Shown in pieces: positions 7,039 through 60,687 of a stretch of 61,384 bases of DNA. Below the pieces are notes generated by a model. That model did not search any database. It had not been told where the DNA came from and saw only the letters and a program-made list of their open reading frames with translations. How positions within the stretch are numbered: position 1 is the first letter of the stretch; each line of letters starts with the position of its first letter. The stretch is from contig JAZOQG010000011.1 of NCBI GenBank assembly GCA_045656005.1, positions 1 through 61,384 on the forward strand, read 5' to 3'. The translations under genes were made by a program, and so were the position numbers. The DNA comes from Clostridia bacterium. Lineage in GTDB: Bacteria; Bacillota; Clostridia; UMGS1883; UMGS1540.

Positions 7039-8210
7039 GTATTTTTCAGTCATTTAAACTTGCAGTAAAAAGCCTTGCCTCCAGTAAAATGCGTGCGTTT
7101 TTAACGATGCTCGGCATAATTATAGGTATTGCGGCTGTAATATCTCTCGTATCTCTGATGAGCGGAATGACAAATGAGATTGTTTCTTCTTTTGAAAGCA
7201 TGGGTGTTACAAACCTTACCGTAAACGTTATAGGCAGAGGCGGAAATATTCAGGTATCAACGAGTGACTTGCAGGAATTTGTTGATGAAAATGCCGAACT
7301 TTTTTCAGGCATGACCCCGACCGTAACAGTGCCCGCAACAGTTAAAAAAGGAGCAGAGTCTTTAACTTCAACCTCTGTTTCAGGTGTAAGCGATGCTTAC
7401 GACGAAATAAATTCGAAAGAGGTTACAAGAGGAAACTTTTTAACTTATATTGATGTTGAAAGAAGTCAGCGAAACTGTGTTATAGGCACCTATGTTGCAA
7501 GAAGCTTTTTTGGTATGAAAAATCCTCTGGGCGAGAAAATCAAAATAAATGGTAACGGTTTTACAGTTGTGGGAGTGCTTAAGGAAACTGCCGAAAGCGA
7601 AGAGGGAAGCGATGATGATAAAATCTTAATCCCATACACAACCGCACAGAAAATTGCCTATACAAGAGCTAATACATACACGGTTTCCGCAATGACAAAG
7701 GATGATGTGTCGGCGGCAAAAGAAAAACTGGAAGGGTTTCTTTATGAAAAACTTGGAAATGATAAACTCTATACAGTTATTGCCTTAAGTGAAATTACCG
7801 ATACTTTAAATGATATGCTCGGCAAAATGTCTCTCCTGCTTGCAGGGATTGCGGCAATTTCCCTTCTTGTAGGAGGAATTGGCATTATGAACATAATGCT
7901 CGTGTCCGTTACGGAGAGAACAAGGGAAATAGGCATAAGAAAAGCACTTGGCGCAACCCCTTGGGATATACTTAGTCAGTTCGTGGTAGAAGCACTTACT
8001 ACAAGTGCCATAGGCGGAATAATAGGCATTTTTGTCGGAATATTTATGGCAAATGCCATGGGCAACATGATAGGAATAAAAGCGGCAATTTCTGTATCGG
8101 CAATAGTAATTTCTGTTTCCGTTTCCGCAGGAATAGGTGTAATATTCGGCTACCTTCCTGCAAAGAAAGCCGCAAAACTTAACCCAATCGATGCACTTCG
8201 TTACGATTGA
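7035..8210 (+). CDS. MacB/FtsX-type ABC permease
   Basis: RAFLTMLGIIIGIA, GGIGIMNIMLVSVTERTREIGIRKALGA, LNPIDALRY. Confidence 0.95.
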   Translation: MSIFQSFKLAVKSLASSKMRAFLTMLGIIIGIAAVISLVSLMSGMTNEIVSSFESMGVTNLTVNVIGRGGNIQVSTSDLQEFVDENAELFSGMTPTVTVPATVKKGAESLTSTSVSGVSDAYDEINSKEVTRGNFLTYIDVERSQRNCVIGTYVARSFFGMKNPLGEKIKINGNGFTVVGVLKETAESEEGSDDDKILIPYTTAQKIAYTRANTYTVSAMTKDDVSAAKEKLEGFLYEKLGNDKLYTVIALSEITDTLNDMLGKMSLLLAGIAAISLLVGGIGIMNIMLVSVTERTREIGIRKALGATPWDILSQFVVEALTTSAIGGIIGIFVGIFMANAMGNMIGIKAAISVSAIVISVSVSAGIGVIFGYLPAKKAAKLNPIDALRYD

Positions 8211-8224
8211 TTTTAGGAGGAATT

Positions 8225-10459
8225 ATGAAAAAGATTATTTCATTGATTTTAGTTTTTTCCATGCTTTTTATAGGCACTTTTGTCTATGCTGATGAGGCTG
8301 ACACGCGTTTTGGTGTTTTAAAAGCATTTGGAATAATGGAAGGTGACGGCATGGGTAACTTAAATCTTGAAAGACCCGTTACACGTGCCGAATTCACAAA
8401 AATGGCAATAGCCGCATCAACACTTAGAAACAGTGTGACAAGCTCGCTTTCTGTTTCGCCTTTTCCTGATGTAAGCTATGATAAGTGGTATGCGTCTTAT
8501 ATTTATCTTGGCGTTTCAAACGGATTTTTAGCAGGTTATAAGGACGGAACATTTAAACCTGATAATGAAGTTTTGTACGAAGAAGGCGTTGCCATAATTT
8601 TAAGACTTTTAGGCTATCAGGACAGTGAGTTTGCATACTCGTGGCCTCAGGGTCAAATTTCAATGGGCGAAAGGATAGGACTTTGTGATGGTGTAAATTC
8701 TTATCAGGGTCAGCCTCTTACAAGAAATCAGGTTTCATATCTTTTCTATAACCTTCTCTCATGCACAAATAAAAGCGGCGGAGAATATACTGCTTCTTTA
8801 GACCATTCAATAGTAAGCGACATAATGATAAATTCTTCTTATTTGCAGGATGACACTATAAAAAAAGGATATGTTCTTACAAGTGCAGGAACCTATGAGG
8901 TTTTAGATAGCTTTGACTATTCACTTGTAGGCTACAGAGGCGATGCAGTTGTAAAAGATAAAAAAATAGTGTCTTTTATTCCTGAAAGCACCAATAAAAC
9001 AGTTTATAATGTCTTTTCTGTTTCAGGGCAGAATCTCGTTTTGTCAAAGGACGGAAAAGTTTCCGACTATAAACTTGACGGTGACGAAATTTTATATGCA
9101 GACGGCACAAAAACAACAGTTTCGCAGATGCTTTCAAAATTTGCACCCGGCGATGTTTTGGAACTTCACCATGATAAAGACTGGGAGCTTCAATATGTTG
9201 CTTACAGCAAAAATGCACTCGAAGGTCCCCTCGTTATAAAAAGCTCTGCATGGTACCAAAGTGCAGGGGTTTCACCAAATGCCTTTGTGGTAAGAAATGG
9301 CAAAATTTCAAATCTTGATAATCTGGAGATGTACGATGTGGTGTACTATTCCAGAGAGCTTCAAAGTGTTTGGGCAAGTGATAAAAGAGCCTTCGGCATA
9401 TATGAAGATGCCCTTCCGAACACCGACCAGATTGAAAGCATTGTGCTTTCAGGTGTAACATATAAAATAAATTCCGTTGATGCCTTTATAAAACTTTCCT
9501 CAGGCGGTCAGTTTAAAGAGGGAGATAATGTGACATTGCTTTTGGACCGTGACGGAAATGTGTGCGACGTTATAAGCCCCGACCAGACTGAAAACATCAT
9601 TGGCTTTATGATTTCAGGAGGCTCAAAAAATTACACTCAGGCAGACGGGGGAACATATTCTTCAAATTATGTAACCTTAATTACTGAAGATGGCGAAGAA
9701 GTAGAGTATGAAAGCATAAGGGATTATTCAAACTATTATAAGAATATGCCCGTAAGTGTTTCTTTTAAAAACGGAAAGGCAACACTTTCAAAACTTGAAA
9801 CCGCTTTTTCAGTTTTTGGAAAGGTGTCTCAAAGTGCGAAAAGCATAGGAAGTCTAATGCTCGATGATGATATTAAAATTGTTGACATAGTAAAAGGTGA
9901 TTTAAGCCTTGATGCCATTTATAAAAAAGTGTATCTTCAGAGAATTGACGGAGTTTCCATATCACAAAGCGACATAATTTATGCGGGGAAAAATTCCAAA
10001 GGAAAAATTGACATTCTTTTCTTAAATGATGTTACTGGCGATGCGTATTCATACGGAATTATAACAAAAGCCGTAAATGAATCAAGAGGTATGAATGTTT
10101 CAGGCAGTTACACGTATTTTGACCGCAGTCAGAAAGCTACTGTAAACACAAACAGAACGACATTTTCAGTCTATTCTGGAAATCCTGTTAAAATCCGCTA
10201 TTCTAAAAACGGTGTTGACAGCATGATAAAACTTTCCGAAATCGGAAAGGTGACGCAAATAGAAAATGGTACGGCGACAATAAAAGGCACATCATATTTT
10301 CTTGATGCAAATATTTCAATGTATAGTAAAGAAGGAAATGAATATCAGGCAATAACTCTCGATGAACTTAAAGAGCTTTTAAAAAGTAAAACAGTTACTG
10401 CTTATTCTGAAAGCACAAATCTTTTAAGAGGAAGAATAAGAGTGCTTTTAGTGAAATAA
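8225..10459 (+). CDS. Secreted S-layer homology (SLH) domain protein
   Basis: SD AGGAGG; signal peptide MKKIISLILVFSMLFIGTFVYA; SLH motifs VTRAEF and GYKDGTFKPDNEV. Confidence 0.88.
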   Translation: MKKIISLILVFSMLFIGTFVYADEADTRFGVLKAFGIMEGDGMGNLNLERPVTRAEFTKMAIAASTLRNSVTSSLSVSPFPDVSYDKWYASYIYLGVSNGFLAGYKDGTFKPDNEVLYEEGVAIILRLLGYQDSEFAYSWPQGQISMGERIGLCDGVNSYQGQPLTRNQVSYLFYNLLSCTNKSGGEYTASLDHSIVSDIMINSSYLQDDTIKKGYVLTSAGTYEVLDSFDYSLVGYRGDAVVKDKKIVSFIPESTNKTVYNVFSVSGQNLVLSKDGKVSDYKLDGDEILYADGTKTTVSQMLSKFAPGDVLELHHDKDWELQYVAYSKNALEGPLVIKSSAWYQSAGVSPNAFVVRNGKISNLDNLEMYDVVYYSRELQSVWASDKRAFGIYEDALPNTDQIESIVLSGVTYKINSVDAFIKLSSGGQFKEGDNVTLLLDRDGNVCDVISPDQTENIIGFMISGGSKNYTQADGGTYSSNYVTLITEDGEEVEYESIRDYSNYYKNMPVSVSFKNGKATLSKLETAFSVFGKVSQSAKSIGSLMLDDDIKIVDIVKGDLSLDAIYKKVYLQRIDGVSISQSDIIYAGKNSKGKIDILFLNDVTGDAYSYGIITKAVNESRGMNVSGSYTYFDRSQKATVNTNRTTFSVYSGNPVKIRYSKNGVDSMIKLSEIGKVTQIENGTATIKGTSYFLDANISMYSKEGNEYQAITLDELKELLKSKTVTAYSESTNLLRGRIRVLLVK

Positions 10460-19623: not shown

Positions 19624-19652
19624 ATGGGCTGTGATAAAAAATCACAGCCCAT
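19624..19652. terminator. Bidirectional terminator
   Basis: ATGGGCTGTGAT-aaaaa-ATCACAGCCCAT. Confidence 0.75.
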
Positions 19653-20817
19653 TATTATTTTTAGAAATAATCTTATCTCCATATTTGTGCTTAATATCAT
19701 CAATGCAGTTTTCAAGTTTTAAAAGTTTTTCAGTTTCTTCGGTGCTCTGAAAGAGAGAAGTTTGAATATGTGTGTCCGAATGAATCAGGTTTACCGCAGT
19801 AACGGTAACGGCTCTTATATCATTTTCCCATTTATATCTTGCTTCAAAAAGCTCTGCTGCAGCGCGTGCCAAAAGGGTGCTGCTTTGAGTGGGAGAATCG
19901 AGTGTGGTGCGAAATTCTCGTGATGAAAAAAGGCAGTCTTTTATGGTTACCGATACTCCGCACGCTAAAAGTGAGCGCCTTTTAAGTTTTGCTGAAATTT
20001 CTTCTGTAAGAAAATTTATGAGCCTTGTAACTTCCTCAGAGGATTTTAAGTCATGAGGGGTGGTGGCACCGTGCCCAACGCTTTTTACTTCCTCCTGGTT
20101 TTCCACAGAAACCACAGGAGATAAGTCGAGCCCGTTTGCATATTGCCACAAAACTTCTCCGTTTTTTCCGAGCCAGCTTTTAAGACATGTTATATCTGAA
20201 AGCGCAATGTCACCGATTGTGTTGATGTTGTGCTTTTTTAAAATATTGTTCGTAGCCCTTCCAACCCCAAGTAAATCAGATGCAGGGAGAGACCATATTT
20301 TTTTAAAATTATCTTTTGATATAACTGTCACGGCATCAGGTTTTTTCATATCTGATGCCAGTTTTGCAAAAATTTTGTTAAACGAAACTCCCACCGATAC
20401 AGTAAGCCCGGTTTCGCTTTTGACCTTTTTCCTTATTTTGTGTGCAATTTCTTCTCCGCTTCCGAAAAGTGATGTGCTTCCCGTTACATCAAGCCAACAT
20501 TCGTCAATTCCGAAAGGCTCTATCATATCCGTAAAAGAATAATAAATCTTTCTCACAATTTCTGAGTATCTGTAATATGAAGGAAAATCAGGCTCTACTA
20601 TTATAAGCTGGGGACATTTAGCCTTTGCCTGCCATATAACATCTCCTGTTTTTATGCCATATTTTTTAGCATTTTGATTTTTTGCAAGCACTATTCCGTG
20701 GCGGTTTGCACCTGAGCCGCAAACTGCAAGGCAGGAATTTTTAAGCTCAGGATTTTTAACACATTCAACGCTTGCATAAAAATTATTTAAATCGCTGTGA
20801 AGAATAATTCTTTCCAT
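19642..20817 (-). CDS. dinB: Y-family DNA polymerase IV
   Basis: ILHSDLNNFYASVE, GIDECWLD, SVGVSFNKIFAKLASDMKKPD. Confidence 0.93.
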   Translation of the reverse strand: MERIILHSDLNNFYASVECVKNPELKNSCLAVCGSGANRHGIVLAKNQNAKKYGIKTGDVIWQAKAKCPQLIIVEPDFPSYYRYSEIVRKIYYSFTDMIEPFGIDECWLDVTGSTSLFGSGEEIAHKIRKKVKSETGLTVSVGVSFNKIFAKLASDMKKPDAVTVISKDNFKKIWSLPASDLLGVGRATNNILKKHNINTIGDIALSDITCLKSWLGKNGEVLWQYANGLDLSPVVSVENQEEVKSVGHGATTPHDLKSSEEVTRLINFLTEEISAKLKRRSLLACGVSVTIKDCLFSSREFRTTLDSPTQSSTLLARAAAELFEARYKWENDIRAVTVTAVNLIHSDTHIQTSLFQSTEETEKLLKLENCIDDIKHKYGDKIISKNNNGL

Positions 20818-20843
20818 TTTTTTCAGTTTCCTTTAAAAAAGTG

Positions 20844-20930
20844 TTGACAAATTTAAAAAGTTATTGTAATATAAAGGCGAAAGATACTTTCGTCTTTATT
20901 AATTATAATGTAAATGTGTTGCGTTGTCAA
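20844..20930. promoter_or_regulatory. Face-to-face promoters of xre and dinB with a central palindromic operator candidate
   Basis: Plus TTGACA(20844)-17-TAATAT; minus TTGACA(20930)-17-TATAAT; palindrome ATAAAGGCGAAAG-ata-CTTTCGTCTTTAT at 20871-20899. Confidence 0.7.
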
Positions 20931-20958
20931 CAATAATTTTCAAAAGGAGAAATATGTT

Positions 20959-21354
20959 ATGAAATTTTGCGACAAGGTAAAAAATCTTCGTAAGGAGATT
21001 GGAATAAGTCAGGAACTGCTTGCAGAAAAAATCGGTGTTTCAAAGAGGACTGTACAAAATTATGAAACAGCTGATATGTATCCTAAAAGCCGCGAAATAT
21101 ATAAAAAACTGGCAGATACATTTTCTGTTGATGTAAATTATCTTCTTACTGAGGATGAAAAGTTTATTTCTGAGGCAAAAAACCGCTATGGCAGAAGTGG
21201 GGAAATTGATGCGAAGGAGCTTGTGGGAAGTATATCGGCACTTTTCTCGGGCGGTCAGCTTCCCGAGGAAGATAAGGATGCCGTAATGCGGGCAATCAGC
21301 GATGCTTACTGGACTGCGAAAGAAGAAAATAAGAAATACGCTTCAAGAAAATAA
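20959..21354 (+). CDS. XRE-family HTH repressor (ImmR-like)
   Basis: KVKNLRKEIGISQELLAEKIGVSKRTVQNYET; SD AGGAG. Confidence 0.9.
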   Translation: MKFCDKVKNLRKEIGISQELLAEKIGVSKRTVQNYETADMYPKSREIYKKLADTFSVDVNYLLTEDEKFISEAKNRYGRSGEIDAKELVGSISALFSGGQLPEEDKDAVMRAISDAYWTAKEENKKYASRK

Positions 21355-21377
21355 GGGGAGCGGGAAGAAGGTTAAAT

Positions 21378-21887
21378 TTGAATTGCGAAAGAATTAAAAA
21401 AATGGCAGATGCCCTCGTTAAAAAAACAGGGAGCAGAAATCCTTTTGTTATAGCAGATGAAAATTCTATATTTATAAGATATATAAATGATTTTAAAACG
21501 CTTAAAGGTATGTACACGGTGATAAAAAGATGCCGTTTCATATTTATAAATGCAAATTTGCCCGAAGAAGTTCAGAGGGTTGTGTGTGCCCATGAAATAG
21601 GACATGATATGATTCACAGAGAAATGGCACAAATGGGTGCAATTTCAGAAACCTCGCTTTTTGATACAAAAAATTCATTTGAATTTGAGGCAAATGTGTT
21701 TGCTGCAGAACTTTTGATTGATGATAATATGATAGTTTCCATGGCAAAGGAAGGAATGAGTATAGGAAATATTGCATCAAGCCTTTCTCTCGATCCTGGA
21801 ATTGTCGAAATAAAATTTTTGTCTCTTGGAAGGCGCGGACATAAAATAGGAAAAACCCCATTTGGAGTCAAACAGGTTCTATCCTGA
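21378..21887 (+). CDS. ImmA/IrrE family metallopeptidase
   Basis: AHEIGH (HExxH) and EFEANVFAAELL; follows the XRE gene. Confidence 0.9.
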   Translation: MNCERIKKMADALVKKTGSRNPFVIADENSIFIRYINDFKTLKGMYTVIKRCRFIFINANLPEEVQRVVCAHEIGHDMIHREMAQMGAISETSLFDTKNSFEFEANVFAAELLIDDNMIVSMAKEGMSIGNIASSLSLDPGIVEIKFLSLGRRGHKIGKTPFGVKQVLS

Positions 21888-21906
21888 TAATTTTAAGGGA
21901 GAAATT

Positions 21907-22788
21907 ATGAAGAGGAAGAAAAAACAAAAATTTTTATATGTACTTATAGCTGCACTCTTAATGTTTGCATCAACATATATTGCAAATTTTATCGAAGGTT
22001 TTGAAAAAGATAAAATGCAGTTTCCGAAAGATGGAGAACTTTATGTTCACTTTATGGACGTAGGGCAGGCAGACAGCATACTTGTAAATTTCCCAAACGG
22101 GGAAAATATGCTTATTGATGCAGGGAATAATATTGACGGGGAGAGAGTTTCAGCTTATATAAAAGAATATGGTATAGAAAAAATTGATTATCTTGTCGGA
22201 ACACACCCTCATGCTGACCATATTGGCGGAATGGATGATGTTTTAAGAAATTTTGACATAGGCAGAATATATATGCCGAAAGCCACTGCAAATACTGTTA
22301 CATATGAAGATGTCCTTGTCGAAATAAAGAATAAGGGTCTCAAAATAACAGAGGCTAAAGAAGGAGTAGTAATTTCTGACGGAGACGTAAAGTGTGAGAT
22401 TTTGTCACCCTGTCGCAATTTTTATGAGGAACTTAATGACTATTCAGCAGTTGTGCGTTTGACATATGGCGAAACCTCGTTTTTGTTTACAGGAGATGCA
22501 GAAGAAGGTGTTGAAAGAGAGCTTTTAAGAAAATATAATCTTAAATCTGATGTTCTAAAGGTTTCCCACCATGGTTCGAACACTTCTTCCTGCTCTGAAT
22601 TTATAAATAATGTAAAGCCTCAGTTTGCAATAATATCCGTAGGTACAGGAAATGATTACGGACATCCTTCAGAAAAGGTTATAAAAAGACTTCAGAAGGC
22701 AGGGTGCGAAATTTTCAGAACAGATACAGATGGCGATATAATTCTTAGAAGCGACGGCTTGGATGTTTACTATGAAGGGGTGAGATAA
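21907..22788 (+). CDS. ComEC/Rec2-type metallo-beta-lactamase fold protein, N-terminally anchored
   Basis: DVGQADS, LIDAG, HPHADHIGG, FLFTGDAE, KVSHHGS, YGHP. Confidence 0.9.
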   Translation: MKRKKKQKFLYVLIAALLMFASTYIANFIEGFEKDKMQFPKDGELYVHFMDVGQADSILVNFPNGENMLIDAGNNIDGERVSAYIKEYGIEKIDYLVGTHPHADHIGGMDDVLRNFDIGRIYMPKATANTVTYEDVLVEIKNKGLKITEAKEGVVISDGDVKCEILSPCRNFYEELNDYSAVVRLTYGETSFLFTGDAEEGVERELLRKYNLKSDVLKVSHHGSNTSSCSEFINNVKPQFAIISVGTGNDYGHPSEKVIKRLQKAGCEIFRTDTDGDIILRSDGLDVYYEGVR

Positions 22789-22983
22789 ATGAATTTTGTT
22801 ATAGACAGATTTGAAGGAGAATGGGCAATACTTGAAGGAGAAAACAAAGAAATTTATAAATTTTCCGCATCTGCGCTTGAAGATTTTAAAGAAGGCGATG
22901 TTATTGCAATTTTAAAAGATGAGAATGAAATAAACAGAAGGAAAGATAGTATTAAAAGTCTATCTGATGAGCTTTTTGAGTAA
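22789..22983 (+). CDS. DUF3006-like small protein
   Basis: VIDRFEGEWAILE...KEGDVI; usual partner of the ComEC-like gene. Confidence 0.8.
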   Translation: MNFVIDRFEGEWAILEGENKEIYKFSASALEDFKEGDVIAILKDENEINRRKDSIKSLSDELFE

Positions 22984-23051
22984 AATCCCCCCTTTATTAA
23001 ATTTTAATATAAATTTTTTTAAAAAAATTTAATTTATTTCTACTTTGCCAC

Positions 23052-23080
23052 TTGAACTTTTATAAAAATTATGGTAAAAT
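23052..23080 (+). promoter_or_regulatory. sigma-A promoter of carAB, followed by a ~140-nt leader
   Basis: TTGAAC-17 bp-TAAAAT with TG extension. Confidence 0.6.
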
Positions 23081-23224
23081 ATAATGAAATTTGTTAAAAA
23101 ACAAGTTTTAACGTAACAAAGGTGCATTGGCTTTCGGTCTTGTCGGTGCGTTAAACATAGATGGTGGGTTTTTGGCTCATCGCTTGAAAACAGACCGTAA
23201 TATTTCAAAAAGGGGAGAATTGCT

Positions 23225-24292
23225 TTGGAAAAGGCGGCTTATTTAGTCTTGGAAAACGGTAAAATTTTTAAGGGCAAGTTTTTTGGCGTTCCTAAAAATG
23301 TGCTTGGCGAAGTTGTTTTTACTACTTCTATGAATGGTTATATTGAAACTTTGACAGACCCGAATTATTTCGGTCAGATTGTTGTTCAAACATTTCCTTT
23401 GATTGGGAACTATGGTGTTATGGAAAGTGACGTTGAAAGCAGTAGTGTTAAAGTAGCGGCTTATATTGTTAAGAGTTTGTGTGAAGTCCCCTCGAATTTC
23501 AGAAGTGAGGGCGCACTTGACACTTTTTTTAAGGAAAAAAATGTGACGTGCCTTTCGGGAATTGATACTCGTGCACTCACAAAGACCATTCGTGAATGTG
23601 GCAGCTTGAATGGCTTGATAACCGATAATATTGATAATATAGATTTCGGAAAAGTTAAATCCTATAAAATAGAAAATGTAACAGAAAGCCTTTCGACCAA
23701 GGAAATATATTCTGTAGGCGAAGGCAAAAAAAATGTTGTAGTTTATGATTTTGGTGTAAAAAACAGCATTGTAGATGTGTTTAAAAACAGAGGGTATAGA
23801 GTTTACGTAGTACCTTTTGATACACCTGCTAAGGAAGCACTTGAGCTTAATCCTTCGGGAATAGTATTTTCAAATGGTGGCGGAAACCCATGTGATAATA
23901 AAGTTTCTGCTGAAATTGTAAAAGAACTTTTTGAAAGCGGTATCCCGATGCTCGGTATCAGCCTCGGTCATGAGATTATGGCACTTGCAAACGGTTTTGA
24001 ATGTGAAAAACTTAAATATGGTCATCACGGTGCAAATATCCCCGTTAAAGATGCAGAAAGTGACAGAGTTTATATAACAAATCAGAATCACCTTTATGCA
24101 GTTTCTGCAAACAGTATTAAAAGCGATATAGCTGATGTTATTTTCTATAACGTTAACGATAAATCATGCGAAGGTCTTCGCTATAAAAATGCTCCTGCAA
24201 TTTCTGCGGAGTTTTATCCCGACAGTGCCGGTGGGCTTTGCGATACAACCTTTGTATATGACAAATTCTTTGATATGATGGAGGGAAGATAA
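23225..24292 (+). CDS. carA: Carbamoyl-phosphate synthetase small subunit with degenerate glutaminase site
   Basis: GEVVFTT, LTDP, PLIGNYG, QNH present; GISLGHE replaces GICLGHQ and EFYPD replaces QxHPE. Confidence 0.92.
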   Translation: MEKAAYLVLENGKIFKGKFFGVPKNVLGEVVFTTSMNGYIETLTDPNYFGQIVVQTFPLIGNYGVMESDVESSSVKVAAYIVKSLCEVPSNFRSEGALDTFFKEKNVTCLSGIDTRALTKTIRECGSLNGLITDNIDNIDFGKVKSYKIENVTESLSTKEIYSVGEGKKNVVVYDFGVKNSIVDVFKNRGYRVYVVPFDTPAKEALELNPSGIVFSNGGGNPCDNKVSAEIVKELFESGIPMLGISLGHEIMALANGFECEKLKYGHHGANIPVKDAESDRVYITNQNHLYAVSANSIKSDIADVIFYNVNDKSCEGLRYKNAPAISAEFYPDSAGGLCDTTFVYDKFFDMMEGR

Positions 24293-27200
24293 TGCCGCTT
24301 AATAAGAATATTAAAAAAGTTTTGGTTATAGGCTCCGGCCCTATTGTTATAGGTCAGGCGGCTGAATTTGATTTTGCTGGGACACAGGGTTGCCGAGCAA
24401 TAAGAGAAGATGGAATTGAAATCGTACTTCTCAACTCAAACCCTGCAACAATTATGACAGATAAGTCAATGGCTGACAGAATTTATATCGAGCCTATGAC
24501 TCTTACTACCGTTAAAAGAATAATCCAGAAAGAAAAACCCGATAGTATTTTGTCAGGTCTTGGCGGACAGACAGGACTTAATCTTTGTATGCAGCTTGCA
24601 AAAGAAGGTTTTCTTGAGGAAAACGGTGTAACACTTTTGGGTGTTTCTCCCGAAACTATAGATAAAGCTGAGGATAGACAGCTCTTTAAAGACACAATGG
24701 AAAGCATAAATCAGCCCTGTATTCCTTCAAAGGTTGTAACTGATGTTGAAGCTGCCTTGGAATTTGCAGAGGAGATAGGCTATCCCGTAATTGTTCGTCC
24801 TGCATTTACTTTGGGCGGTACAGGTGGCGGTATTGCAGATGATGCGGCACAGCTTTCTGAAATTGCAAGCGTAGGTCTCTCGCTTTCTCCTATTACTCAG
24901 GTACTTATTGAGAAATGTATTTCAGGCTGGAAAGAAATCGAATTTGAAGTAATGCGCGACAGTGCAGGAAACGCTATAACAGTATGCTCAATGGAAAACT
25001 TTGACCCTGTTGGTGTTCATACGGGCGACAGTATAGTTGTAGCACCAGCGGTAACACTTTCACCCAAAGAATATCAGATGCTTCGTACAGCCGCACTTGA
25101 CATAGTTTCGGCACTTGGAGTTGAAGGAGGATGTAACTGTCAGTTTGCACTTCATCCTGAGTCTTTTGAATATGCAGTTATCGAGGTAAACCCCAGAGTT
25201 TCCCGTTCTTCTGCTCTTGCATCAAAGGCAACAGGATATCCTATAGCAAAGGTTGCAACAAAGGTTGCAATAGGCTATCGCCTTGACGAAATTGTAAACT
25301 CCGTTACAGGAACCACTTATGCGGCGTTTGAGCCTGCAATAGATTATATTGCAGTTAAATTCCCGAAATGGCCGTTTGATAAATTTGTTTATGCAAAGAA
25401 AGAACTCGGCACACAGATGAAGGCAACAGGCGAGGTTATGTCTATTGATGATAACTTTGAAGGTGCACTTATGAAGGCAGTTCGTGGCGCAGAAATTGGA
25501 ATTGACACACTCAATTTCAAAGGAATGGATAAGAAAAGTGAAGAAAAACTTTTCAATATGATTAAAAAACCTACAGATTTGCGTCTTTTCGCTGTGTATG
25601 AAGCATTAAAAAGAGGTATTACACCCGAAAAAATCAATGAAATCAGTAAAATTGATAAATGGTTCCTTTATAAACTTTTGAATATTGTAAATTACGAAAA
25701 ACAACTTGGCGGTGAGGTTTCCGAGGAAATGTATTTCGAGGGTAAAAAACTCGGCTTCCTTGATAGTACAATCGGAAAAAGCTATGGTGCAAAACCAAAT
25801 TATAAAATGGTTGATACATGTGCATGTGAATATGCTGCAACAACCCCATATTTCTATGCTGCTTACGATAAGGAAGAAGCAGGCGGAATTAATGAGGCAG
25901 TTGACTTTAAGGATAAAAACGGCAAGAAAACAATTCTTGTACTCGGTTCTGGTCCTATAAGAATCGGTCAGGGAATTGAGTTTGACTACGCATCTGTTCA
26001 CTGTATTGAATCCCTTCAGAGAATGGGCTATGAGGTTGCAATCATCAATAATAATCCCGAAACCGTTTCAACAGATTTTGATACGGCTGACCGTCTTTAC
26101 TTCGAGCCACTTTGCGGTGAAGATGTAATGAACATCATAAACTTTGAAAAACCAGAGGGTGTTGTTGTTGCGTTCGGCGGCGGAACTGCAATTAAACTTA
26201 CAAAGCTTCTCAGTAAAAATAATATTCCGATTTTAGGAACATCTGCTGACAGCATTGATGCGGCAGAGGACAGAGAAAGATTTGAACAGCTTCTCGAAAG
26301 CCTTAATGTAAAAAGACCGAAAGGCTTTTCTGCAATGACTACCGAGGAAGCTCTTGCAATCGCAAATAAAATCGAATACCCCGTTTTAATCCGTCCTTCA
26401 TATGTTTTGGGCGGCCAGAACATGATTATCGCTTATGACGATAATGATATCAAAGAGTACATGGAAATTATCTTGAGACAAAAACAGGAAAATCCGATAC
26501 TCATTGATAAATATATAAACGGATATGAAATAGAAGTTGATGCAATTTGTGACGGAGAGGATATTTTAATTCCCGGTATCATGGAGCATATTGAAAGAAC
26601 AGGTATCCATTCAGGGGACTCCATTGCAGTTTATCCTCCGCAGAATATTGATGACTCTATTGCAAATGACATTTTTGAAACAACAAAGGCTATTTGCCTT
26701 GGACTTGGAGGCATCGGTCTTGTAAATATCCAGTATATCGTAAAAGATGGCGAGATTTATGTAATCGAGGTAAATCCTAGAGCATCAAGAACAGTTCCAT
26801 ATATGAGCAAAATCACAGGTATTCCAATGTGTGATATTGCAATGCTTGTTTCCCTCGGCACAAAGCTTCGTGATACAGAGTATGGTATCGGCCTTTATAA
26901 AACCTCTGCATATACAGCCGTTAAAGTGCCTGTGTTCTCTTTTGAGAAACTTACAGACGTTGATACTCAGCTCGGTCCTGAAATGAAATCAACAGGTGAG
27001 GTTTTGGGTATCGGCAAAAATCTTGAAGAAGCACTTTATAAAGGGCTTCTAGGTGCAGGCTATAAGATGTCAAAAACAGGCGGTGTGTTCTTAACTGTTC
27101 GTGACAGTGATAAAGATGAAATCGGTGATATTGCCGAGAAATTCAGCCAGATGGGATTTTTGCTTTATGCAACTGCAGGAACTGCAAGAGTTCTTGAAAA

Positions 27201-28320
27201 AATGGGACTTCGTGTAAAGGTTGTAAATAAAATTCACGAAAGTGAAGATAATTCAATGACACTTCTTGATAGCGGAAGTATCAAATATATTGTTTCAACC
27301 TCCAAAAAGGGAAGAGACCCGGTTCGTGACAGTGTTAAGATAAGAAGAAAAGCAAGCCTTCTCGGAATACCATGCCTTACTTCTATTGATACTGCAAATG
27401 CTCTTGCAAATACTCTTATGAGTAAATACAGTGAAATTAACACAGAGCTTGTTGATATAACTCACCTTCGTGCAGAAAAAATAAATCTTAAATTTACAAA
27501 GATGCAGGGCTGCGGAAACGATTATATTTATATTGATTGCTTTAAGCAGACAGTAAATTCACCTGAAAATCTCTCAGTATTTCTCACAGACCGTCACTTC
27601 GGAATAGGCGGTGACGGAGTTGTGCTTATCTGCCCTTCGGAAGTTGCAGATGCAAAAATGAGAGTGTTCAATGTTGACGGAAGCGAAGGAGAAATGGCAG
27701 GAACTTCCATAAGATGTGTCGCAAAATATCTTTATGATAATAAAATGGTGAATAAAGATACAGTAACGGTTGAAACTAAAAGCGGGGTTAAAACCTTAAA
27801 GCTTAAAACCGTTGGCGGACTTGTTTCAAGCGCACAGGTCAATATGGGACTTCCAACATTCAGCCCCAAATCTATTCCGATGAATGTTGAAGGGGAAACA
27901 GTTATAAATAAAAAAATTGAAGTTTGCGGAAAAGAATATGAAGTAACCGCACTTTCCTTTGGAAATCCTCATGCAGTAGTGTTTATGGATAACTCTGAAA
28001 AAATTGAAGTTTCAAAAATCGGACCGCAGTTTGAAAACTGCCCCATTTTCCCTGAAAAGGTTAATGCGGAATTTGTTCAGGTTCTCGATAATAAGACACT
28101 TCGCGTATCCGTATGGGAGAGAGGAAACGGGGAGACACTCGCCTGCGGAACAGGAGCATGCGCAGCAGTAGTTGCGGCAGTAATGTGCGGACATTGCGAG
28201 AAAAACAGCGATATTAAGGTTATGCTTTTGGGCGGAGAACTTACAATCCGCTACACAGACGAGGGAGTGTTTATGACAGGACCTTGCGAAAAAGTATTTG
28301 AAGGTATTGTAACAATCTAA
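24292..28320 (+). CDS. carB: Carbamoyl-phosphate synthetase large subunit fused to a C-terminal DapF-fold domain
   Basis: GSGPIVIGQAAEFD, two ATP-grasp units, MGS domain, then in frame LKFTKMQGCGNDY...GIGGDG...GNPH...WERGNGETLACGTG from ~27481. Confidence 0.93.
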   Translation: MPLNKNIKKVLVIGSGPIVIGQAAEFDFAGTQGCRAIREDGIEIVLLNSNPATIMTDKSMADRIYIEPMTLTTVKRIIQKEKPDSILSGLGGQTGLNLCMQLAKEGFLEENGVTLLGVSPETIDKAEDRQLFKDTMESINQPCIPSKVVTDVEAALEFAEEIGYPVIVRPAFTLGGTGGGIADDAAQLSEIASVGLSLSPITQVLIEKCISGWKEIEFEVMRDSAGNAITVCSMENFDPVGVHTGDSIVVAPAVTLSPKEYQMLRTAALDIVSALGVEGGCNCQFALHPESFEYAVIEVNPRVSRSSALASKATGYPIAKVATKVAIGYRLDEIVNSVTGTTYAAFEPAIDYIAVKFPKWPFDKFVYAKKELGTQMKATGEVMSIDDNFEGALMKAVRGAEIGIDTLNFKGMDKKSEEKLFNMIKKPTDLRLFAVYEALKRGITPEKINEISKIDKWFLYKLLNIVNYEKQLGGEVSEEMYFEGKKLGFLDSTIGKSYGAKPNYKMVDTCACEYAATTPYFYAAYDKEEAGGINEAVDFKDKNGKKTILVLGSGPIRIGQGIEFDYASVHCIESLQRMGYEVAIINNNPETVSTDFDTADRLYFEPLCGEDVMNIINFEKPEGVVVAFGGGTAIKLTKLLSKNNIPILGTSADSIDAAEDRERFEQLLESLNVKRPKGFSAMTTEEALAIANKIEYPVLIRPSYVLGGQNMIIAYDDNDIKEYMEIILRQKQENPILIDKYINGYEIEVDAICDGEDILIPGIMEHIERTGIHSGDSIAVYPPQNIDDSIANDIFETTKAICLGLGGIGLVNIQYIVKDGEIYVIEVNPRASRTVPYMSKITGIPMCDIAMLVSLGTKLRDTEYGIGLYKTSAYTAVKVPVFSFEKLTDVDTQLGPEMKSTGEVLGIGKNLEEALYKGLLGAGYKMSKTGGVFLTVRDSDKDEIGDIAEKFSQMGFLLYATAGTARVLEKMGLRVKVVNKIHESEDNSMTLLDSGSIKYIVSTSKKGRDPVRDSVKIRRKASLLGIPCLTSIDTANALANTLMSKYSEINTELVDITHLRAEKINLKFTKMQGCGNDYIYIDCFKQTVNSPENLSVFLTDRHFGIGGDGVVLICPSEVADAKMRVFNVDGSEGEMAGTSIRCVAKYLYDNKMVNKDTVTVETKSGVKTLKLKTVGGLVSSAQVNMGLPTFSPKSIPMNVEGETVINKKIEVCGKEYEVTALSFGNPHAVVFMDNSEKIEVSKIGPQFENCPIFPEKVNAEFVQVLDNKTLRVSVWERGNGETLACGTGACAAVVAAVMCGHCEKNSDIKVMLLGGELTIRYTDEGVFMTGPCEKVFEGIVTI

Positions 28321-28327
28321 AACAATC

Positions 28328-28561
28328 AGGGGATGTTAAAAATTCCCAGAGCACAAAAAGGCAATAGTTTTTATTGGCATTGTAAATTTAAAAAACATTA
28401 AAGTAACTACATTTTGTAGGGAAATCTCATAGCATGAGATTTCCCTGAATTTTTAAGCCTTTTTGCTACGAACAAACTTCACCTCTCGCTGTATAACATA
28501 CAGCTTCGGGTAACCCCTGCGGGTTCAGTTTGTCCGTTCTGAAACTTTTTTCCTATCCCCT
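28328..28561 (+). mobile_element. MITE-like dispersed structured repeat, copy 2
   Basis: Homologous to 2201-2419; TIRs AGGGGATnnnAAAAA; same AGGGAAATCTCA/TGAGATTTCCCT hairpin. Confidence 0.7.
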
Positions 28562-28579: not shown

Positions 28580-29320
28580 ATGTTGCGCAATTATAAAGAA
28601 GAAACCGAAAAAAGAGTAAAATTTATAAAAGACACACTTGAAAGTGCTCACGCAAAAGGAATTGTTTTCGGCAACAGCGGTGGAAAAGACTGTGCACTCG
28701 TGGGAATACTTTGCAAAATGGCATGCGAGGATACGGTGGGAGTAATTATGCCCTGCTCTTCAAGACGAAACTATGAAGAGGACATGCGTGACGGTATGGA
28801 GGTTGCAGAAAAATTCGGCATCGAAACAAGAGTTGTTGATATAACGGATGTGAAGGAAAAATTCCGAAGGATACTTGAAGGTAAGACCATGCTTTCTAAG
28901 ATGGCAGACACAAATATAAATCCACGTCTTCGTATGACTGTGCTTTATGCCATAGGTGCATCGGAAGGTAAACTTGTAGCAGGAACAGGTAACAGAAGTG
29001 AGCGATATATGGGCTACTTTACAAAGTGGGGTGACGGAGCTTGTGATTTAAATCCCATTTCCGACCTTACAGTTAAGGAGGTTTATGAATTTTTAGAATA
29101 CCTTGGAGCACCCGAGGCTATTATGACAAAAGCCCCTTCTGCCGCGCTTTTTGAAGGACAGAGTGACGAAGAGGATATGGGAATAAAATATGCCGATATT
29201 GATAAATTTTTGCTTACAGGCGAAATATCCGATGAAAATCGTGAGATTATAGAAAGATATAATAAAGGAAGCCGTCACAAGGTCAGAATGCCTGCGGTGT
29301 ATAGAGAAATTAATGAATAA
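28580..29320 (+). CDS. nadE: NH3-dependent NAD+ synthetase (no glutaminase domain)
   Basis: SGGKDC, NINPRLRM, GTGNRSE, GYFTKWGDG, PSAAL...DEEDMG; 246 aa. Confidence 0.92.
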   Translation: MLRNYKEETEKRVKFIKDTLESAHAKGIVFGNSGGKDCALVGILCKMACEDTVGVIMPCSSRRNYEEDMRDGMEVAEKFGIETRVVDITDVKEKFRRILEGKTMLSKMADTNINPRLRMTVLYAIGASEGKLVAGTGNRSERYMGYFTKWGDGACDLNPISDLTVKEVYEFLEYLGAPEAIMTKAPSAALFEGQSDEEDMGIKYADIDKFLLTGEISDENREIIERYNKGSRHKVRMPAVYREINE

Positions 29321-47118: not shown

Positions 47119-49410
47119 ATGAAAAAGTATTTGTGTTTTTTACTCAGCATTACCCTTGTTTTTACTATGGCAGTACCCGCATTTTCCGCAGGGATAGAAG
47201 AAAGAGATTTGCTCGATTATATGTTCATTAAAAATGTTATTCCTGACCGATACAGCGTGGTATTAATGTCATTATTGTCGAATGACAGTGATGACGGCAT
47301 TTATACTTTGCGCAGTGCTGATGAGATAGACAGTATTGTTGAAGACGTTGAGTTTTATTTGTATCAGTATGGGGTTACAGCGGAAGAACTCAGACCATAT
47401 GTTACTCACCTTTACGAATTTTTCGTTGAAAAGCCTGACCTTTTTACAGTGTTTTGTGGATTTATGCTTAATGAAGAAAATGTACTCATGCCTATGGCGG
47501 ACCAGGACCGATTTGAACAAGAACTTCCCAACATCAACAGTCTTATCCGCGAAAATTTTTATTGTGAAACATTTTTCTTAAATCTTTTGTCAAGAGTTCA
47601 TGATGAGTATTATTCAGAGAAAAACGACGCAGCATTCATATATTATAATGATGAAATCAGAATGAAAAGCGATGCAATGGACTATGTGGATTTTTTTGAA
47701 AATAATGACAGTATTGTAATATCGTGCGCACAAAATCAGATAGAGAATATGCTCTCTGTTATAAACGGCACCGACTTTGCGGAGAAGAGTGCTTTTGTGG
47801 AGTATATGATTTTGATGGGAATTATGTCACCCAATATGGATGAAGGTTCGGCAGAGGAAGAACCTGTGGTAGATACTGTGTATGATGATATGGCAAAAAG
47901 TTATGCTTTGGGAACAGAGGACATAAAAGCATTTTATACTATAGACAGTATAATTGCAGAATATGTTCCGCTTATAAATGCTCAAAAGACCCAAAGTGCA
48001 AAAAATAAAATTATATATGAAGCAATGTCTAAAGCGGCAACATTGAAAGTAGTTGAAGGGAAAGATACATTAAGTATAACAGACAGTGAGCTTGTGTTTT
48101 TTGCGGCTTTGTCAGCGCAGAGGGTAAGAAATAAGCTTGTAGAAAACAATATAAATGTGTCAAGAATCCAGCCGTTTTCTGTAAAGGTTTTGTTTGAAGA
48201 TGAGGATAACATAAAACTTTCCATTGCAAAAGGCGGTGTAAGTGCGGCAAAAGAGGAATGTGCAGATAAACTTTCTGTTGTAACTCCAAACGGAAGTGTT
48301 GTAGTAAATTTATCAAAAGCTTTGGAAAATGATGCATTTGGAAGCAGTATGATATTTGAAATTCTTTATGGCGATGCAGAAACTGTAATTCCTTCACTTT
48401 CGAAATATGCTCAGGGAAATAAAGTGTATAAGATAAAGGCGGGAAATGGTAATTTAGACTATGATACTGCATACTTTGAAAAAGATGTTACCGACGCCGA
48501 GAACCTGTGGGAAGATAATAAGGTTTATAAGTTGGGTAATGATGGAGAGAGAGAGCTTGTTAATAACTATATTTTAGAAGGCAGTAAGGTGTCTTTTGAG
48601 ATAGGTGACGGACAGTATTTTACCCGAATAGACGGAGAATTGGATAATTTTGAAGAAGCGGTACCGACACCTACTCCCACAGTAACCCCAACTCCTGTAA
48701 CACCGCCATCTGATGGAGATAATACAGGAAGTGAAGGCGGTAACGGGAATAATGATTACGAAGATGAAGAAGGCGGAACACCGGTAACCAAGCCATCTGA
48801 TAAAGAACCGTCAACACCTACACCAACACCCGGTGTATCTGTAACACCTTCGCCTGCTTTGAAAGTGTCCTTCAGCGATGTAACAGATTCTCACTGGGCA
48901 AAAAGCTATATTGAAGAGCTTGCGTCAAAGGGAATTTTAAGCGGTGTTGGAAATAATATGTTTAAACCCGATGATTTTGTAACCCGCGAGCAGTTTGCAA
49001 AAATACTGGCAGAAGCATTTGGTATTGTAAATGATAATGCAGAAAGCGATTTTGCTGATGTGGAAAAAGGAAGCTGGTATGAAAAATATGTAGCGACCGT
49101 ATATGCTAAAGGAATAGCAACCGGTATAGGTGAAAATATGTTCGGTATAGGACAGAATATGACAAGACAGGATATGGCGGTTATGATAGTAAGAGCCGCA
49201 AAAGCTCTTGGAATTAACCTTGCAGAACCATCAACACATTCTTTTAATGATGATGGAAAAATAGCTGATTATGCTAAAGAAGCGGTAAGTATTCTGATAA
49301 GTGCAAATGTAGTTTCCGGGTTTGAGGATAACACTTTCAGACCCACAGAAAACTGTACAAGAGCACAGGTTGCAAAAATTGTAAGCGCCGTGCTGGCAAA
49401 AGGAAAATAA
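47119..49410 (+). CDS. Secreted protein with Pro/Thr linker and three C-terminal SLH domains
   Basis: Signal peptide; PTPTPTVTPTP; FSDVTDSHWA...FKPDDFVTREQF, MTRQDMA, FRPTENCTRAQ. Confidence 0.88.
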   Translation: MKKYLCFLLSITLVFTMAVPAFSAGIEERDLLDYMFIKNVIPDRYSVVLMSLLSNDSDDGIYTLRSADEIDSIVEDVEFYLYQYGVTAEELRPYVTHLYEFFVEKPDLFTVFCGFMLNEENVLMPMADQDRFEQELPNINSLIRENFYCETFFLNLLSRVHDEYYSEKNDAAFIYYNDEIRMKSDAMDYVDFFENNDSIVISCAQNQIENMLSVINGTDFAEKSAFVEYMILMGIMSPNMDEGSAEEEPVVDTVYDDMAKSYALGTEDIKAFYTIDSIIAEYVPLINAQKTQSAKNKIIYEAMSKAATLKVVEGKDTLSITDSELVFFAALSAQRVRNKLVENNINVSRIQPFSVKVLFEDEDNIKLSIAKGGVSAAKEECADKLSVVTPNGSVVVNLSKALENDAFGSSMIFEILYGDAETVIPSLSKYAQGNKVYKIKAGNGNLDYDTAYFEKDVTDAENLWEDNKVYKLGNDGERELVNNYILEGSKVSFEIGDGQYFTRIDGELDNFEEAVPTPTPTVTPTPVTPPSDGDNTGSEGGNGNNDYEDEEGGTPVTKPSDKEPSTPTPTPGVSVTPSPALKVSFSDVTDSHWAKSYIEELASKGILSGVGNNMFKPDDFVTREQFAKILAEAFGIVNDNAESDFADVEKGSWYEKYVATVYAKGIATGIGENMFGIGQNMTRQDMAVMIVRAAKALGINLAEPSTHSFNDDGKIADYAKEAVSILISANVVSGFEDNTFRPTENCTRAQVAKIVSAVLAKGK

Positions 49411-54954: not shown

Positions 54955-57900
54955 ATGCTAAAGTTTAAAAAATATCTTTCCGTTTTACTGGCTGTAGCCA
55001 TGATTTTAAGCTCGGTTTCAGTTTTTGCGGAAGGCGAAAACACTAAGTCTGTAACTTTTTCTGACCTTGATGCTAATACTACAGTAGGCAAGGCAGTTGC
55101 AGAACTGGTTCCTTATGGAATTATTTCGGGATATCCTGACGGTACATTCGGTCAGGACAAAACAATTACCCGTGCAGAATTTGCGAAAATAATTGTTACG
55201 TTCTTAAACCTTCAGAATATCGGAACAGAAGGTCTTTCCACAGGCTTTGCTGATGTTGACCAGAATAGTCACTGGGGGCAGCCATATATCCGTACTGCTA
55301 TTGACAGAGGAATAATTTTAGGTTATCCTGATGGTACATTCAAACCCGACAACCCCGTTAAATACTGCGAAGCTGTTAAAATGATGGTTTGCGCACTTAA
55401 CTATGGAGAGGTTGCCGCAAGCCGTACACAGCCCGGTGCACTCTGGTACACAGGTTACATTGCTCAGGCAGCTGACATTGGTATTTTGAAAAATATTTCA
55501 ATAGGTGCTGCTGAGGATCCGGCATCCCGTGGTCTTGTTGCAATTCTTACTTCAAATTCACTTGACGCAGAGGTTGCACAAACTACAGTGGGCGGAAGCG
55601 GTACAACTGCAGGTGGTACTACTGCAAGAGAAGAGTTTTTGAAGACCACCAAAATTACAGGTATTGTTGTATCCTGCCAGCAGACAAATATTGAGGGCGG
55701 CACTGCAACAGGAAAATTAAGACTTATAGAAGTTGATACAGGCGATGGTGCTGAAACCTACATGGTACCTGTAGGAACTGATACTTTAAGCTTGCTCGGT
55801 TATAAAATTGATGCAACAATCAGTGAAGACTCTTCAGGAGATTACCCGGTTATTGCCACAATTACAAAAACAAAAGCAAACAAAGTTGTTACAGTTGATG
55901 CTGATGATATAGACAGTATCAGCACATCTTCTGTGGAGTACTGGGAATCTGACGTTTCAACCTCAACTGAGGCTGTAGGAATCGAAAACGATGCAAGCTT
56001 TATTTATAATGGTAAAGTCCTTGACGAAGTTTTAGATACTGATCTTGAGATTAAAGCAGGTAACATAGTACTCCTTTCAAACGATGGTGATAAACAGGCA
56101 GATGTTGTATTTATAAATGATTGCGAAGTTTACGCAGTAAAGAGCAGCAGCGTAGATACTGCAACAAAACTTAAGAAAATTTATACTCTTTATACAGAGG
56201 GTGATGAAGGAACAATTATAGTTCCACAGAAATCAAAATATGTTACGGTTAACAATAAAGGGACAGAGGTTGAAGATACTACAAGCTTCTCTGTTTCAAA
56301 ATATGATATTATTAACCTTTACCGTTCTAAAGACGGCGAAGTGTTTAATATGGTTGTAACAAGGAATCAGAAGTCTGGTTCAGTTACAGAGATTTCTGCG
56401 AATACTGTTTCAATCAAAAATGTTGAATACAAATTTGCGTATAACTTTAAAGAATATGATGGCACAGATAAGCCCGTGTTTATAAGCGGAAACAATGCAA
56501 GGGTTTACCTTGATGCCTATGGCAAAATTGCTGCAGCGGAGAATATGTCAAGTGCAGAAGATTCAAGCGTTTACCTCGGTTACATTTTGGGTGCAGAAGC
56601 AGGCGAGGGCATAAATGGTAAAAATCAGGTAAGAATGTATGGAATGTCCTCAGGCAAAACGGGCGAGCGTAATTATGAGCTTGCTGAAAATGTGAGAGTT
56701 GATGGCACACTTGCAAGCGGAGAGGAGGCTGTCGGTGTTCTTGAAACTGCAGCTGCAAAGGCAAATGCAAACAAAGGTAATATGTATCTTGATGATGATT
56801 ATACAAAATCTTTAAGCCTTGGAAAATATGCTCAGTTTATAAGATACACACTTGATTCTGATGGTAAAATTGACACAATTGATACTGTTTCTGAAAATGC
56901 AGCAGTAGCGGATGATGATTTGGAACAAGGGCTTCCGTTTCCAAATGTAAACGATGACAGATATGGAAAGGATATAACTGAGGAAGACTACTGGGCAGGT
57001 AAGTATAAGTTTACAACAGGTAATATATTTGTAGATGGCGATGCGGGTACAATAATGGGTATTAATTCCAATACAAGAGTTTTGGTAGTTCCCATTGATA
57101 ATACAAATATCAGTGCTTACAAACAGTATACAGGAACTTCTTACTTTAATAAGGGTACAAGCTACAGAGTAGAGGGATATTGCCTTAATGAAACAAACAT
57201 TGCTAAGTATGTTATAGTATATGCGGGCAAGGATGAGGCTGAGATTACTTCAAATGCCAATATTGCAATTGCAGGAAGCATTAAGCAGGTAACATCTCAG
57301 ATTCCCGACCTTCAGCATCAGGATGCGTTAATTGGCTGGAACTTTAAATCTGGTGCAGCTATAACCGAGCAGTCTCCCCTTCTAGCTTCTGAACCAAATC
57401 TCTTTTACGGAAAAATCCGTGCAGGTGAAATATTCAGATATGCACTTGATGATAAGTACGCAAGCAAAACAGAAATGGTTCTTGATATTGAAGTTGATGA
57501 AGATGGAGTAAGGAAACCTGTTCTTTTCAAACAACAGCTTGTTGAAGAAGAAGTTGCAAATGCACTTGCGCCTGTAACAAAGAAGGCTGATGCGATACGT
57601 TACCGTGATATTCAGTTTGATGCTGAAACAGCTACAAAGCAAGGTTCATCAAATAGAATAATTTATGGTACGGTTGTATCAAAGAGTCAGGATGATGATG
57701 GTAAAAACAGAACAATTACACTTACAAATACAATTGCAGAAGATGGTGAAGTATTCACTAAAAGCGGTGCAGGAATTTTCACACTCGCATCAAATGCAAA
57801 GATTTTTGTAATTGACCTTACTGCAACAGATGAAAGCAAAGTGGTAATCGAAGAAGATAAAGAAAATGGTTATGATTACTTTGCAGATATCGTAACAGTT

Positions 57901-60664: not shown

Positions 60665-60687
60665 CACCTCCCTGTAAAAGGGGAGGT
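60665..60687 (+). terminator. Terminator hairpin
   Basis: CACCTCCCT-gtaaa-AGGGAGGTG followed by TTT. Confidence 0.65.

Follow-up and report, generated by a model that had tools for sequence, protein, structure and literature searches.

Introduction

According to the textbook view of carbamoyl-phosphate synthetases (CPS), only CPS I is ammonia-specific and all other CPS use glutamine (PMC4655335). In human CPS1 the catalytic cysteine of the glutaminase-type domain is replaced by Ser294, glutamine is not used and external ammonia is taken up, and the CPS I of the frog Rana catesbeiana is likewise an ammonia-specific enzyme with a retained glutaminase-like domain (PMC4655335). Here we describe a carA-carB operon of an uncultured gut Clostridia bacterium (GenBank assembly GCA_045656005.1, contig JAZOQG010000011.1) whose small subunit CarA has lost the whole catalytic triad of the glutaminase, and which probably encodes an ammonia-dependent CPS. 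The entire contig, 61,384 nt from a metagenome-assembled genome (MAG), was analysed and is referred to as the window; the operon features described below lie on its forward (+) strand.

Like vertebrate CPS I (human CPS1; PDB 5DOT, 5DOU), the window CPS keeps a catalytically dead glutaminase-type domain in which the cysteine has become a serine, a parallel that had already been drawn in a preliminary description of this DNA, made from the sequence alone, and that is borne out by Ser294 of the human enzyme. However, vertebrate CPS I is a single polypeptide of 1500 residues that resides in mitochondria and needs N-acetylglutamate, whereas the window has separate carA and carB genes instead of one fused polypeptide. 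Only the cysteine is named as replaced in the CPS1 triad (PMC4655335), whereas in the window the complete triad has been substituted together with several glutamine contacts. Frog CPS I keeps the whole triad and is disabled by a neighbouring residue (PMC4655335), whereas here the triad itself is replaced. In addition, the large subunit of the window carries a C-terminal DapF-like domain, unlike CPS I. The two cases arose independently; the window CPS would then work like CPS I, presumably with ammonia as its sole nitrogen donor, without being a member of the CPS I lineage.

With the CarAB enzyme of E. coli (CPS II) the window shares the two-gene operon, the domain layout and the catalytic and tunnel-gate residues of CarB. 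Ammonia is still converted into carbamoyl phosphate by the E. coli C269S CPS and by CarB on its own, in the latter case reportedly in vitro as well as in vivo. The E. coli enzyme is nevertheless glutamine-dependent in vivo and its dead-site mutants are man-made (C269S, PDB 1C30), whereas the dead site of the window is natural, clade-wide and selected. A further likeness is offered by short NadE, an amidotransferase family in which ammonia is used directly in many bacteria; in the ammonia type of NadE the glutaminase domain is absent, whereas in the window CarA it is present but dead and hence invisible to a survey of presence and absence. In a tabulation that covers about 600 genomes, and for which active sites were not inspected, carAB never occurs without its glutaminase component (PMC3376133), and a review of carbamoyl-phosphate sources gives bacterial CPS only as the glutamine-dependent CPS II (PMC6022934). 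Our literature search, which left subscription journals outside its coverage, found no description of a bacterial triad-less CarA or of a CarB-DapF fusion. A bacterial CarA with a dead active site appears to be new, whereas an ammonia-specific CPS with a dead glutaminase domain is already known in the form of CPS I.

The glutaminase active site of CarA is lost

The carA gene (23225..24292; open reading frame, Pfam and NCBIfam) encodes a CPS small subunit of 355 amino acids with a non-catalytic glutaminase-type domain. The two-domain architecture of CarA is complete, with Pfam matches to CPSase_sm_chain (3e-48) and to the class I GATase domain (2e-34), and the NCBIfam profiles score above their curated cutoffs (NF009475, 408 bits against 221; TIGR01368, 380 bits against 307). 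E. coli CarA can be aligned over residues 2-353 without large gaps at 37% identity (PDB 1c30, 1cs0, 1t36), the top PDB match being 1c30, the engineered C269S mutant. An AlphaFold model of high confidence (predicted local distance difference test, pLDDT, 89.7; predicted template modelling score, pTM, 0.90) superposes on E. coli CarA with a template modelling (TM) score of 0.91-0.92 and on the N-terminal moiety of human CPS1 with 0.88. The predicted fold is intact, as are the N-terminal domain and most of the conserved surface of the protein.

The triad residues Cys269, His353 and Glu355 (E. coli numbering), 100% conserved in 154 canonical CarAs, are all replaced in the window CarA, as judged from the alignment and from the codons themselves. 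The nucleophile elbow GICLGHQ reads GISLGHE (23954..23974), with Cys269 changed to Ser246 (AGC, 23960-23962) and Gln273 to Glu250, and the loop GHPEASPGPHD has become FYPDSAGGLCD (24212..24244), in which Tyr331 (TAT, 24215-24217) stands for His353, Asp333 (GAC, 24221-24223) for Glu355, Leu338 for Pro360 and Cys339 for His361. This remodelled stretch, residues 331-340, is the only part of the GATase domain modelled with low confidence (pLDDT 68). By alignment and codon reading, SNGGGNP (23870..23890) replaces the SNGPGDP loop of E. coli residues 239-245 (P242G, D244N), presumably the oxyanion-hole loop, and an asparagine codon (23363..23365) replaces that of Ser47, which is found in 100% of the 154 canonical CarAs and in 0 of the 9 clade members that have the column. 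By alignment, QNHL (24083..24094) replaces QNHG (E. coli 310-313; G313L); leucine or cysteine at position 313 is confined to the sub-clade of the window, and other clade members keep the glycine. The glutamine site is therefore altered at S47N, P242G, D244N, Q273E and G313L, and we take Ser47, Gln273 and Gly313 to be glutamine contacts. Every substitution listed in the preliminary description was found again in our alignment and codon reading, to which S47N, P360L and H361C are added here. Judged from these residues, glutamine hydrolysis by the window CarA appears to be excluded on chemical grounds.

The loss is clade-wide and the gene is under selection

Relatives of the window CarA were taken from a search of 5.8 billion proteins. 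The nearest group comprises nine clusters with 66-92% identity, eight of them full-length and one a fragment, and the next matches reach at most 56%. All nine have Tyr or Phe at His353, Asp at Glu355 and a SNG[GA]G[NA]P loop, and at the nucleophile position the window, P0001 and P0002 carry Ser, whereas P0003, P0005 and P0006 still carry Cys and the remaining P0004 and P0007-P0009 carry Gly. Since His and Glu are lost throughout the clade and the nucleophile varies between Cys, Ser and Gly, the loss of His and Glu must have come first and that of the cysteine have followed repeatedly, at a stage when the cysteine no longer mattered. Serine is encoded by AGC in the window and in L006 and by TCT in L008, and because no single mutation leads from one of these codon families to the other, Cys must have been replaced by Ser at least twice. 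In addition, the loop [FY]-P-D-x-x-x-G-L-C-D-T-T is unchanging across the clade alignment, with Asp333, Gly337, Leu338, Cys339 and Asp340 invariant, and such an invariant remodelled loop suggests a newly selected feature over simple decay. The preliminary description had thought a sequencing error unlikely; as the same substitutions are present in separately made assemblies of ENA, NCBI, JGI and Logan (P0001-P0009; loci L001, JAZNQN01; L006; and L008, JAZLUM01, GCA_054268875.1), such an error is excluded.

When conserved columns were defined as those at least 93% identical in the 154 canonical CarAs, 69 of the resulting 84 were found to be retained by the clade, and nine were kept by no more than 30% of its members: S47, P242, D244, C269, T283, H353, E355, P360 and F367. 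These nine are located at the glutamine site and in the tunnel wall next to it, and the same columns are degraded in about 99 further triad-less CarA sequences. The N-terminal domain retains 31 of its 33 conserved columns, in line with the preliminary description, where this part had been called well conserved.

The ratio of nonsynonymous to synonymous substitution rates (dN/dS), determined by the Nei-Gojobori method among the window, L006, L008 and L001, is 0.11-0.24 for carA, 0.11-0.29 for its GATase domain alone and 0.02-0.046 for carB in the triad-less clade. In a control of loci with an intact Cys-His-Glu triad and comparable divergence, the values are 0.14-0.19 for carA and 0.043-0.065 for carB, and the ratio of dN between carA and carB is 2.6-4.0, against 4.5-6.0 in the triad-less clade. 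Strongly relaxed constraint on CarA was considered and rejected, because even canonical CarA evolves 2.6-4 times faster than CarB. L004 and L005 had been intended for the canonical control and were dropped because their CarAs are triad-less too (carA dN/dS 0.031). The dead CarA is constrained almost as strongly as live CarAs, and judged from the alignments the loss appears to be targeted to the glutamine site of a gene under strong purifying selection.

CarB and the operon are intact

The carB part of the second gene (residues 1-1045, 24292..27426; NF003671, 1445 bits) is a canonical CPS large subunit with two ATP-grasp halves, the oligomerisation and MGS-like allosteric domains, and the catalytic and tunnel residues. 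R129, R169, E215, H243, N283, Q285, E299, N301 and R303 are all kept, and the tunnel-gate residues C232, A251 and A314 are identical to those of E. coli. With 98% identity to the CarB of L006 at a dS of 0.33 and a dN/dS of 0.02, it is among the most constrained genes measured in this analysis.

A consensus scan placed the promoter of the operon at 23052..23080 (TTGAAC, a 17-nt spacer and TAAAAT, with an extended -10 TG); hexamers and spacing are kept in L006, L008 and L001, whose CarAs are 68-92% identical to that of the window. A ribosome-binding site, AAGGGGAG (23210..23217; sequence reading), lies 7 nt 5' of the TTG start and is kept in 4 of 4 aligned loci, and the same TTG start codon is used for carA in the window, L006, L008 and L001. 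The ATG of carB overlaps the stop codon of carA (TAATG), and translation of the two genes is accordingly predicted to be coupled. A strong terminator-like hairpin with a 14-bp stem and a T run (28417..28447) closes the two-gene operon. Rfam gave no match in the whole window at the gathering threshold and none in the carA leader at E <= 1, and the 140-nt leader, which is absent from L001, folds no better than shuffled sequences (z = -1.2); for these reasons a regulatory RNA in the leader is not claimed.

CarB is fused to a DapF-like domain without its first catalytic cysteine

The carB gene continues in frame into a DapF-like domain, giving a gene of 1342 amino acids (24292-28320) with 297 residues beyond the CarB part. 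A linker of about 21 residues (27427..27489), delimited by the NCBIfam limits and a junction alignment of the window, L006, L001 and L012, connects the CarB allosteric domain to the DapF-like domain (fusion residues 1067-1342, 27490..28320). The latter has the DapF profile and two-domain fold (TIGR00652, 272 bits against a cutoff of 115; best solved structure 2otn, 7e-77), and structure alignment, motif census and codons agree that the two catalytic cysteines of DapF, Cys73 and Cys217 in H. influenzae numbering, are not both present. Cys73 is replaced by Ala1136 (GCA, 27697-27699) and Asn75 by Thr1138, and the second cysteine is there (TGC, 28144-28146). The DapF-like domains of the clade have Ala or Ser at Cys73 and Thr at Asn75, the loss being common to L006, L001 and P0121; they nevertheless keep 83 of 90 conserved columns and, at a dN/dS of 0.012-0.068, are under strong purifying selection. 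The domain is likely a pseudo-epimerase, and in this CPS a highly conserved CarB thus appears to be flanked by two modules whose active sites have each been lost in a targeted way.

The fusion is kept in L001, L006 and L012, and it is found widely among gut Clostridia, one of them the cultured species Ruminococcus bicirculans, whose contigs with the fusion end inside carB and do not show its CarA. One or both cysteines are missing in about 19 of 139 sampled fused DapF domains. A link between the fusion and the loss of the CarA triad was considered and rejected: most fusions adjoin canonical CarAs, as in L015 and in many loci of the series L017-L096, and the triad-less CarAs of L004 and L005 are paired with a plain CarB. 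Since the fusion usually stands beside a canonical CarA, it is independent of the triad loss. In this group the arrangement of carA, carB and dapF varies. In L003, L086 and L089 a stand-alone dapF follows carA directly and the locus has no carB, and L016 has a carB-dapF fusion without an upstream carA. In L045 (6001-11105) CarA has the Cys and His with Asp for Glu355, and the fused DapF has Gly at the first catalytic Cys; this pair may represent an intermediate state.

Triad-less CarAs in other Clostridia

The preliminary description had proposed aligning CarA homologues and mapping the triad loss on a tree, which yielded, beyond the clade-wide loss, several independent losses elsewhere. The triad is absent in 22 of the 120 nearest clusters at 90% identity and in about 90 of the 150 nearest cluster representatives at 50% identity, mostly with Gly at the nucleophile; as clustering at 50% over-represents fast-evolving sequences, the latter figure is a count of lineages and not a frequency. 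In a neighbour-joining tree of CarAs built without the motif columns, the window clade is monophyletic, with the triad-less P0035 group as its sister and a mostly canonical group of 107 next, and parsimony on this tree gives about 23 state changes. Clear independent losses include those of L012 and P0069 (Gly/Met/Asp), of L004 and L005 (Arg/Glu/Ser), of the P0035 group, and of P0102 and L057. The triad-less clusters consist entirely of metagenome or MAG sequences, and the cultured neighbours Scatolibacter, Acutalibacter, Massiliimalia and Thermoclostridium have canonical CarA. Triad-less CarAs are therefore spread widely among uncultured Clostridia, with several independent losses. The clade-wide and widespread nature of the trait, the CarB-DapF fusion and the lost catalytic cysteine of DapF all go beyond the preliminary description.

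L012 (562-5752) combines a triad-less CarA with a CarB-DapF that is 92% identical to that of the canonical-CarA loci L018-L053, many of which are human-gut metagenome records, and apparently represents a recent, independent triad loss. In L004 and L005 (10001-11071 in both), which are Eubacteriales MAGs, Cys is changed to Arg, His to Glu and Glu to Ser, and the adjoining CarB is a plain protein of 1065 amino acids without DapF. In L009 and L010 (10001-11068) a triad-less carA of the P0035 group has no adjacent carB and is followed by an unannotated gene for 357 amino acids.

Discussion

The loss of the CarA active site, the selection on carA, the integrity of CarB and the structure of the operon are observations, and from them we consider it reasonably probable that the operon encodes an ammonia-dependent CPS with a non-catalytic CarA. 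Because CarA cannot split glutamine and CarB is intact, free ammonia should be the nitrogen source, unless this CarB is served by another CarA beyond the visible sequence; ammonia use is thus inferred by exclusion and from the parallels with CPS I and E. coli CarB, and the formation of a CarA-CarB complex and the role of the loop are inferred as well. That the organism needs carbamoyl phosphate follows from the dihydroorotase gene on the contig. We propose that the product of the operon (23052-28447) would take its nitrogen from ammonia instead of glutamine, with CarB performing all the chemistry, namely the phosphorylation of bicarbonate, the attack of NH3 that gives carbamate, and a phosphorylation of that carbamate. 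CarA would be unable to hydrolyse glutamine and probably also to bind it, and would be kept as a non-catalytic partner that most likely stabilises or activates CarB, in a ratio that would be fixed by the overlapping stop and start codons. The remodelled loop beside the former ammonia tunnel may admit external ammonia; Raushel's group is said to have mutated positions 360 and 361 to perforate the tunnel wall, which we mention as a lead only. Such an enzyme would suit its habitat, as the closest sequences stem from metagenomes of the bovine gut and of other guts, which are rich in ammonia, and bypassing glutamine would save the ATP otherwise spent by glutamine synthetase. The preliminary description had suggested a bacterial CPS that uses free NH3 and keeps CarA as a structural subunit; the glutaminase loss, the purifying selection and the canonical, co-translated CarB speak for this, although in view of the invariant loop the wording may understate the role of CarA.

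Several points weigh against this interpretation. The affinity of E. coli CPS for ammonia is poor, and the window CarB has no distinctive adaptation: in comparison with 13 non-redundant CarBs of canonical operons it shows 17 mostly conservative clade-specific changes, none of them at a known tunnel or active-site residue. CarA is constrained about as much as active CarAs and its new loop residues are invariant, so that it may have kept, or newly gained, some molecular function other than scaffolding. No RNA sequencing run with carA could be found. Finally, the visible part of the genome amounts to 61 kb, and a canonical carA or pyrAA may sit elsewhere; one scan of a genome collection used peptide patterns specific to the window CarA and was blind to a canonical copy.

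These points lead to the other explanations that have to be weighed. The operon might encode a second, specialised CPS that serves one pathway or is used only when ammonia is high, with a canonical glutamine-dependent CarAB encoded in the part of the genome beyond the contig; some Firmicutes (Bacillus, Lactobacillus) do have two CPS enzymes, and the P0035-group carA of L009 and L010 shows that a triad-less carA can occur without an adjacent carB. However, the conserved housekeeping context of carA, carB-dapF, nadE and sigK, common to L006, does not fit well with a specialised role, nor does the place of CarB among the most constrained genes, and no carA, carB or dapF paralogue is found on the 61-kb contig. 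We regard a second CPS as rather unlikely, and it would alter the physiological role of the enzyme and not its mechanism. The strong constraint on CarA could also mean that it has become a ligand-sensing regulatory subunit, whose old pocket binds glutamine or another small molecule and tunes CarB allosterically. A GATase domain constrained as in active CarAs and replaced loop residues that are invariant in the clade would agree with this, and E. coli C269S still binds glutamine; but the presumed glutamine contacts are replaced, S47N throughout the clade and Q273E and G313L in the window, and a nucleophile position that varies between Cys, Ser and Gly is unexpected for a tuned binding site, so that a sensing role seems distinctly improbable.

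Glutamine hydrolysis by some other chemistry, for example with Ser246 as nucleophile and another base, could be suspected from the fact that Ser arose twice with different codons. His353 and Glu355 are both gone, however, clade members have Gly at the nucleophile or Cys without His, and E. coli C269S has no glutaminase activity, which leaves this a very slim chance. An assembly error or a decaying pseudogene, as one might fear for a metagenome-assembled contig, is hardly credible given the recurrence of the substitutions in assemblies from four sources, an intact frame with the dN/dS given above, and a conserved promoter and ribosome-binding site. An ammonia-dependent CPS with a non-catalytic CarA is thus the interpretation that we retain.

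On a broader scale, it is tempting to speculate, though here we can be only tentative, that bacteria have repeatedly evolved ammonia-only CPS as functional counterparts of vertebrate CPS I, with the dead glutaminase subunit kept as an essential non-catalytic part and, in this clade, with a dead epimerase domain as well. If so, such enzymes would be common in uncultured Clostridia of the gut and rumen and are now annotated as glutamine-hydrolysing, the synthesis of pyrimidines and arginine in these organisms would bypass glutamine entirely, and the ammonia tunnel would have a natural opening in the G-L-C-D-T-T loop. A large and recurrent set of bacterial CarAs with dead sites would change models of nitrogen flow in gut and rumen anaerobes and expose a systematic misannotation, as triad-less CarAs pass the 'glutamine-hydrolyzing' cutoff of TIGR01368. 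In addition, it would offer natural experiments on roles of the small subunit other than ammonia production, and the transition from CPS II to CPS I would gain an independent replicate in evolution.

Genomic context

The gene next after the operon (28580-29320) encodes a short NadE of 246 amino acids without a glutaminase domain, which is of the ammonia-dependent type, and the order carA, carB-dapF, nadE, sigK is also found in L006. At the other end of the contig, where the preliminary description had placed the start of a pyr operon in which a second canonical carAB might be sought, there is indeed a pyrC-type dihydroorotase gene (60729-61384), but it is cut by the contig end and is the only gene visible, so that no second carAB can be seen there. 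A short GC-rich hairpin (CCTCCC...GGGAGG, about 60665-60690) lies 5' of this gene.

Upstream of the operon, positions 19642-22985 hold genes for a DinB-type polymerase, a helix-turn-helix and ImmA/IrrE-like pair, a ComEC-type protein of the metallo-beta-lactamase fold and a small DUF3006-like open reading frame, in an order that is repeated in L008. Other genes of the contig are mcsA-mcsB-clpC, groEL, those of a gerA operon, sigK and yabQ, as well as genes for three large proteins with S-layer homology (SLH) domains (8207-10459, 47119-49410 and 54955-58020). This gene content suggests a spore-forming member of the Clostridia whose surface layer is anchored through SLH domains.

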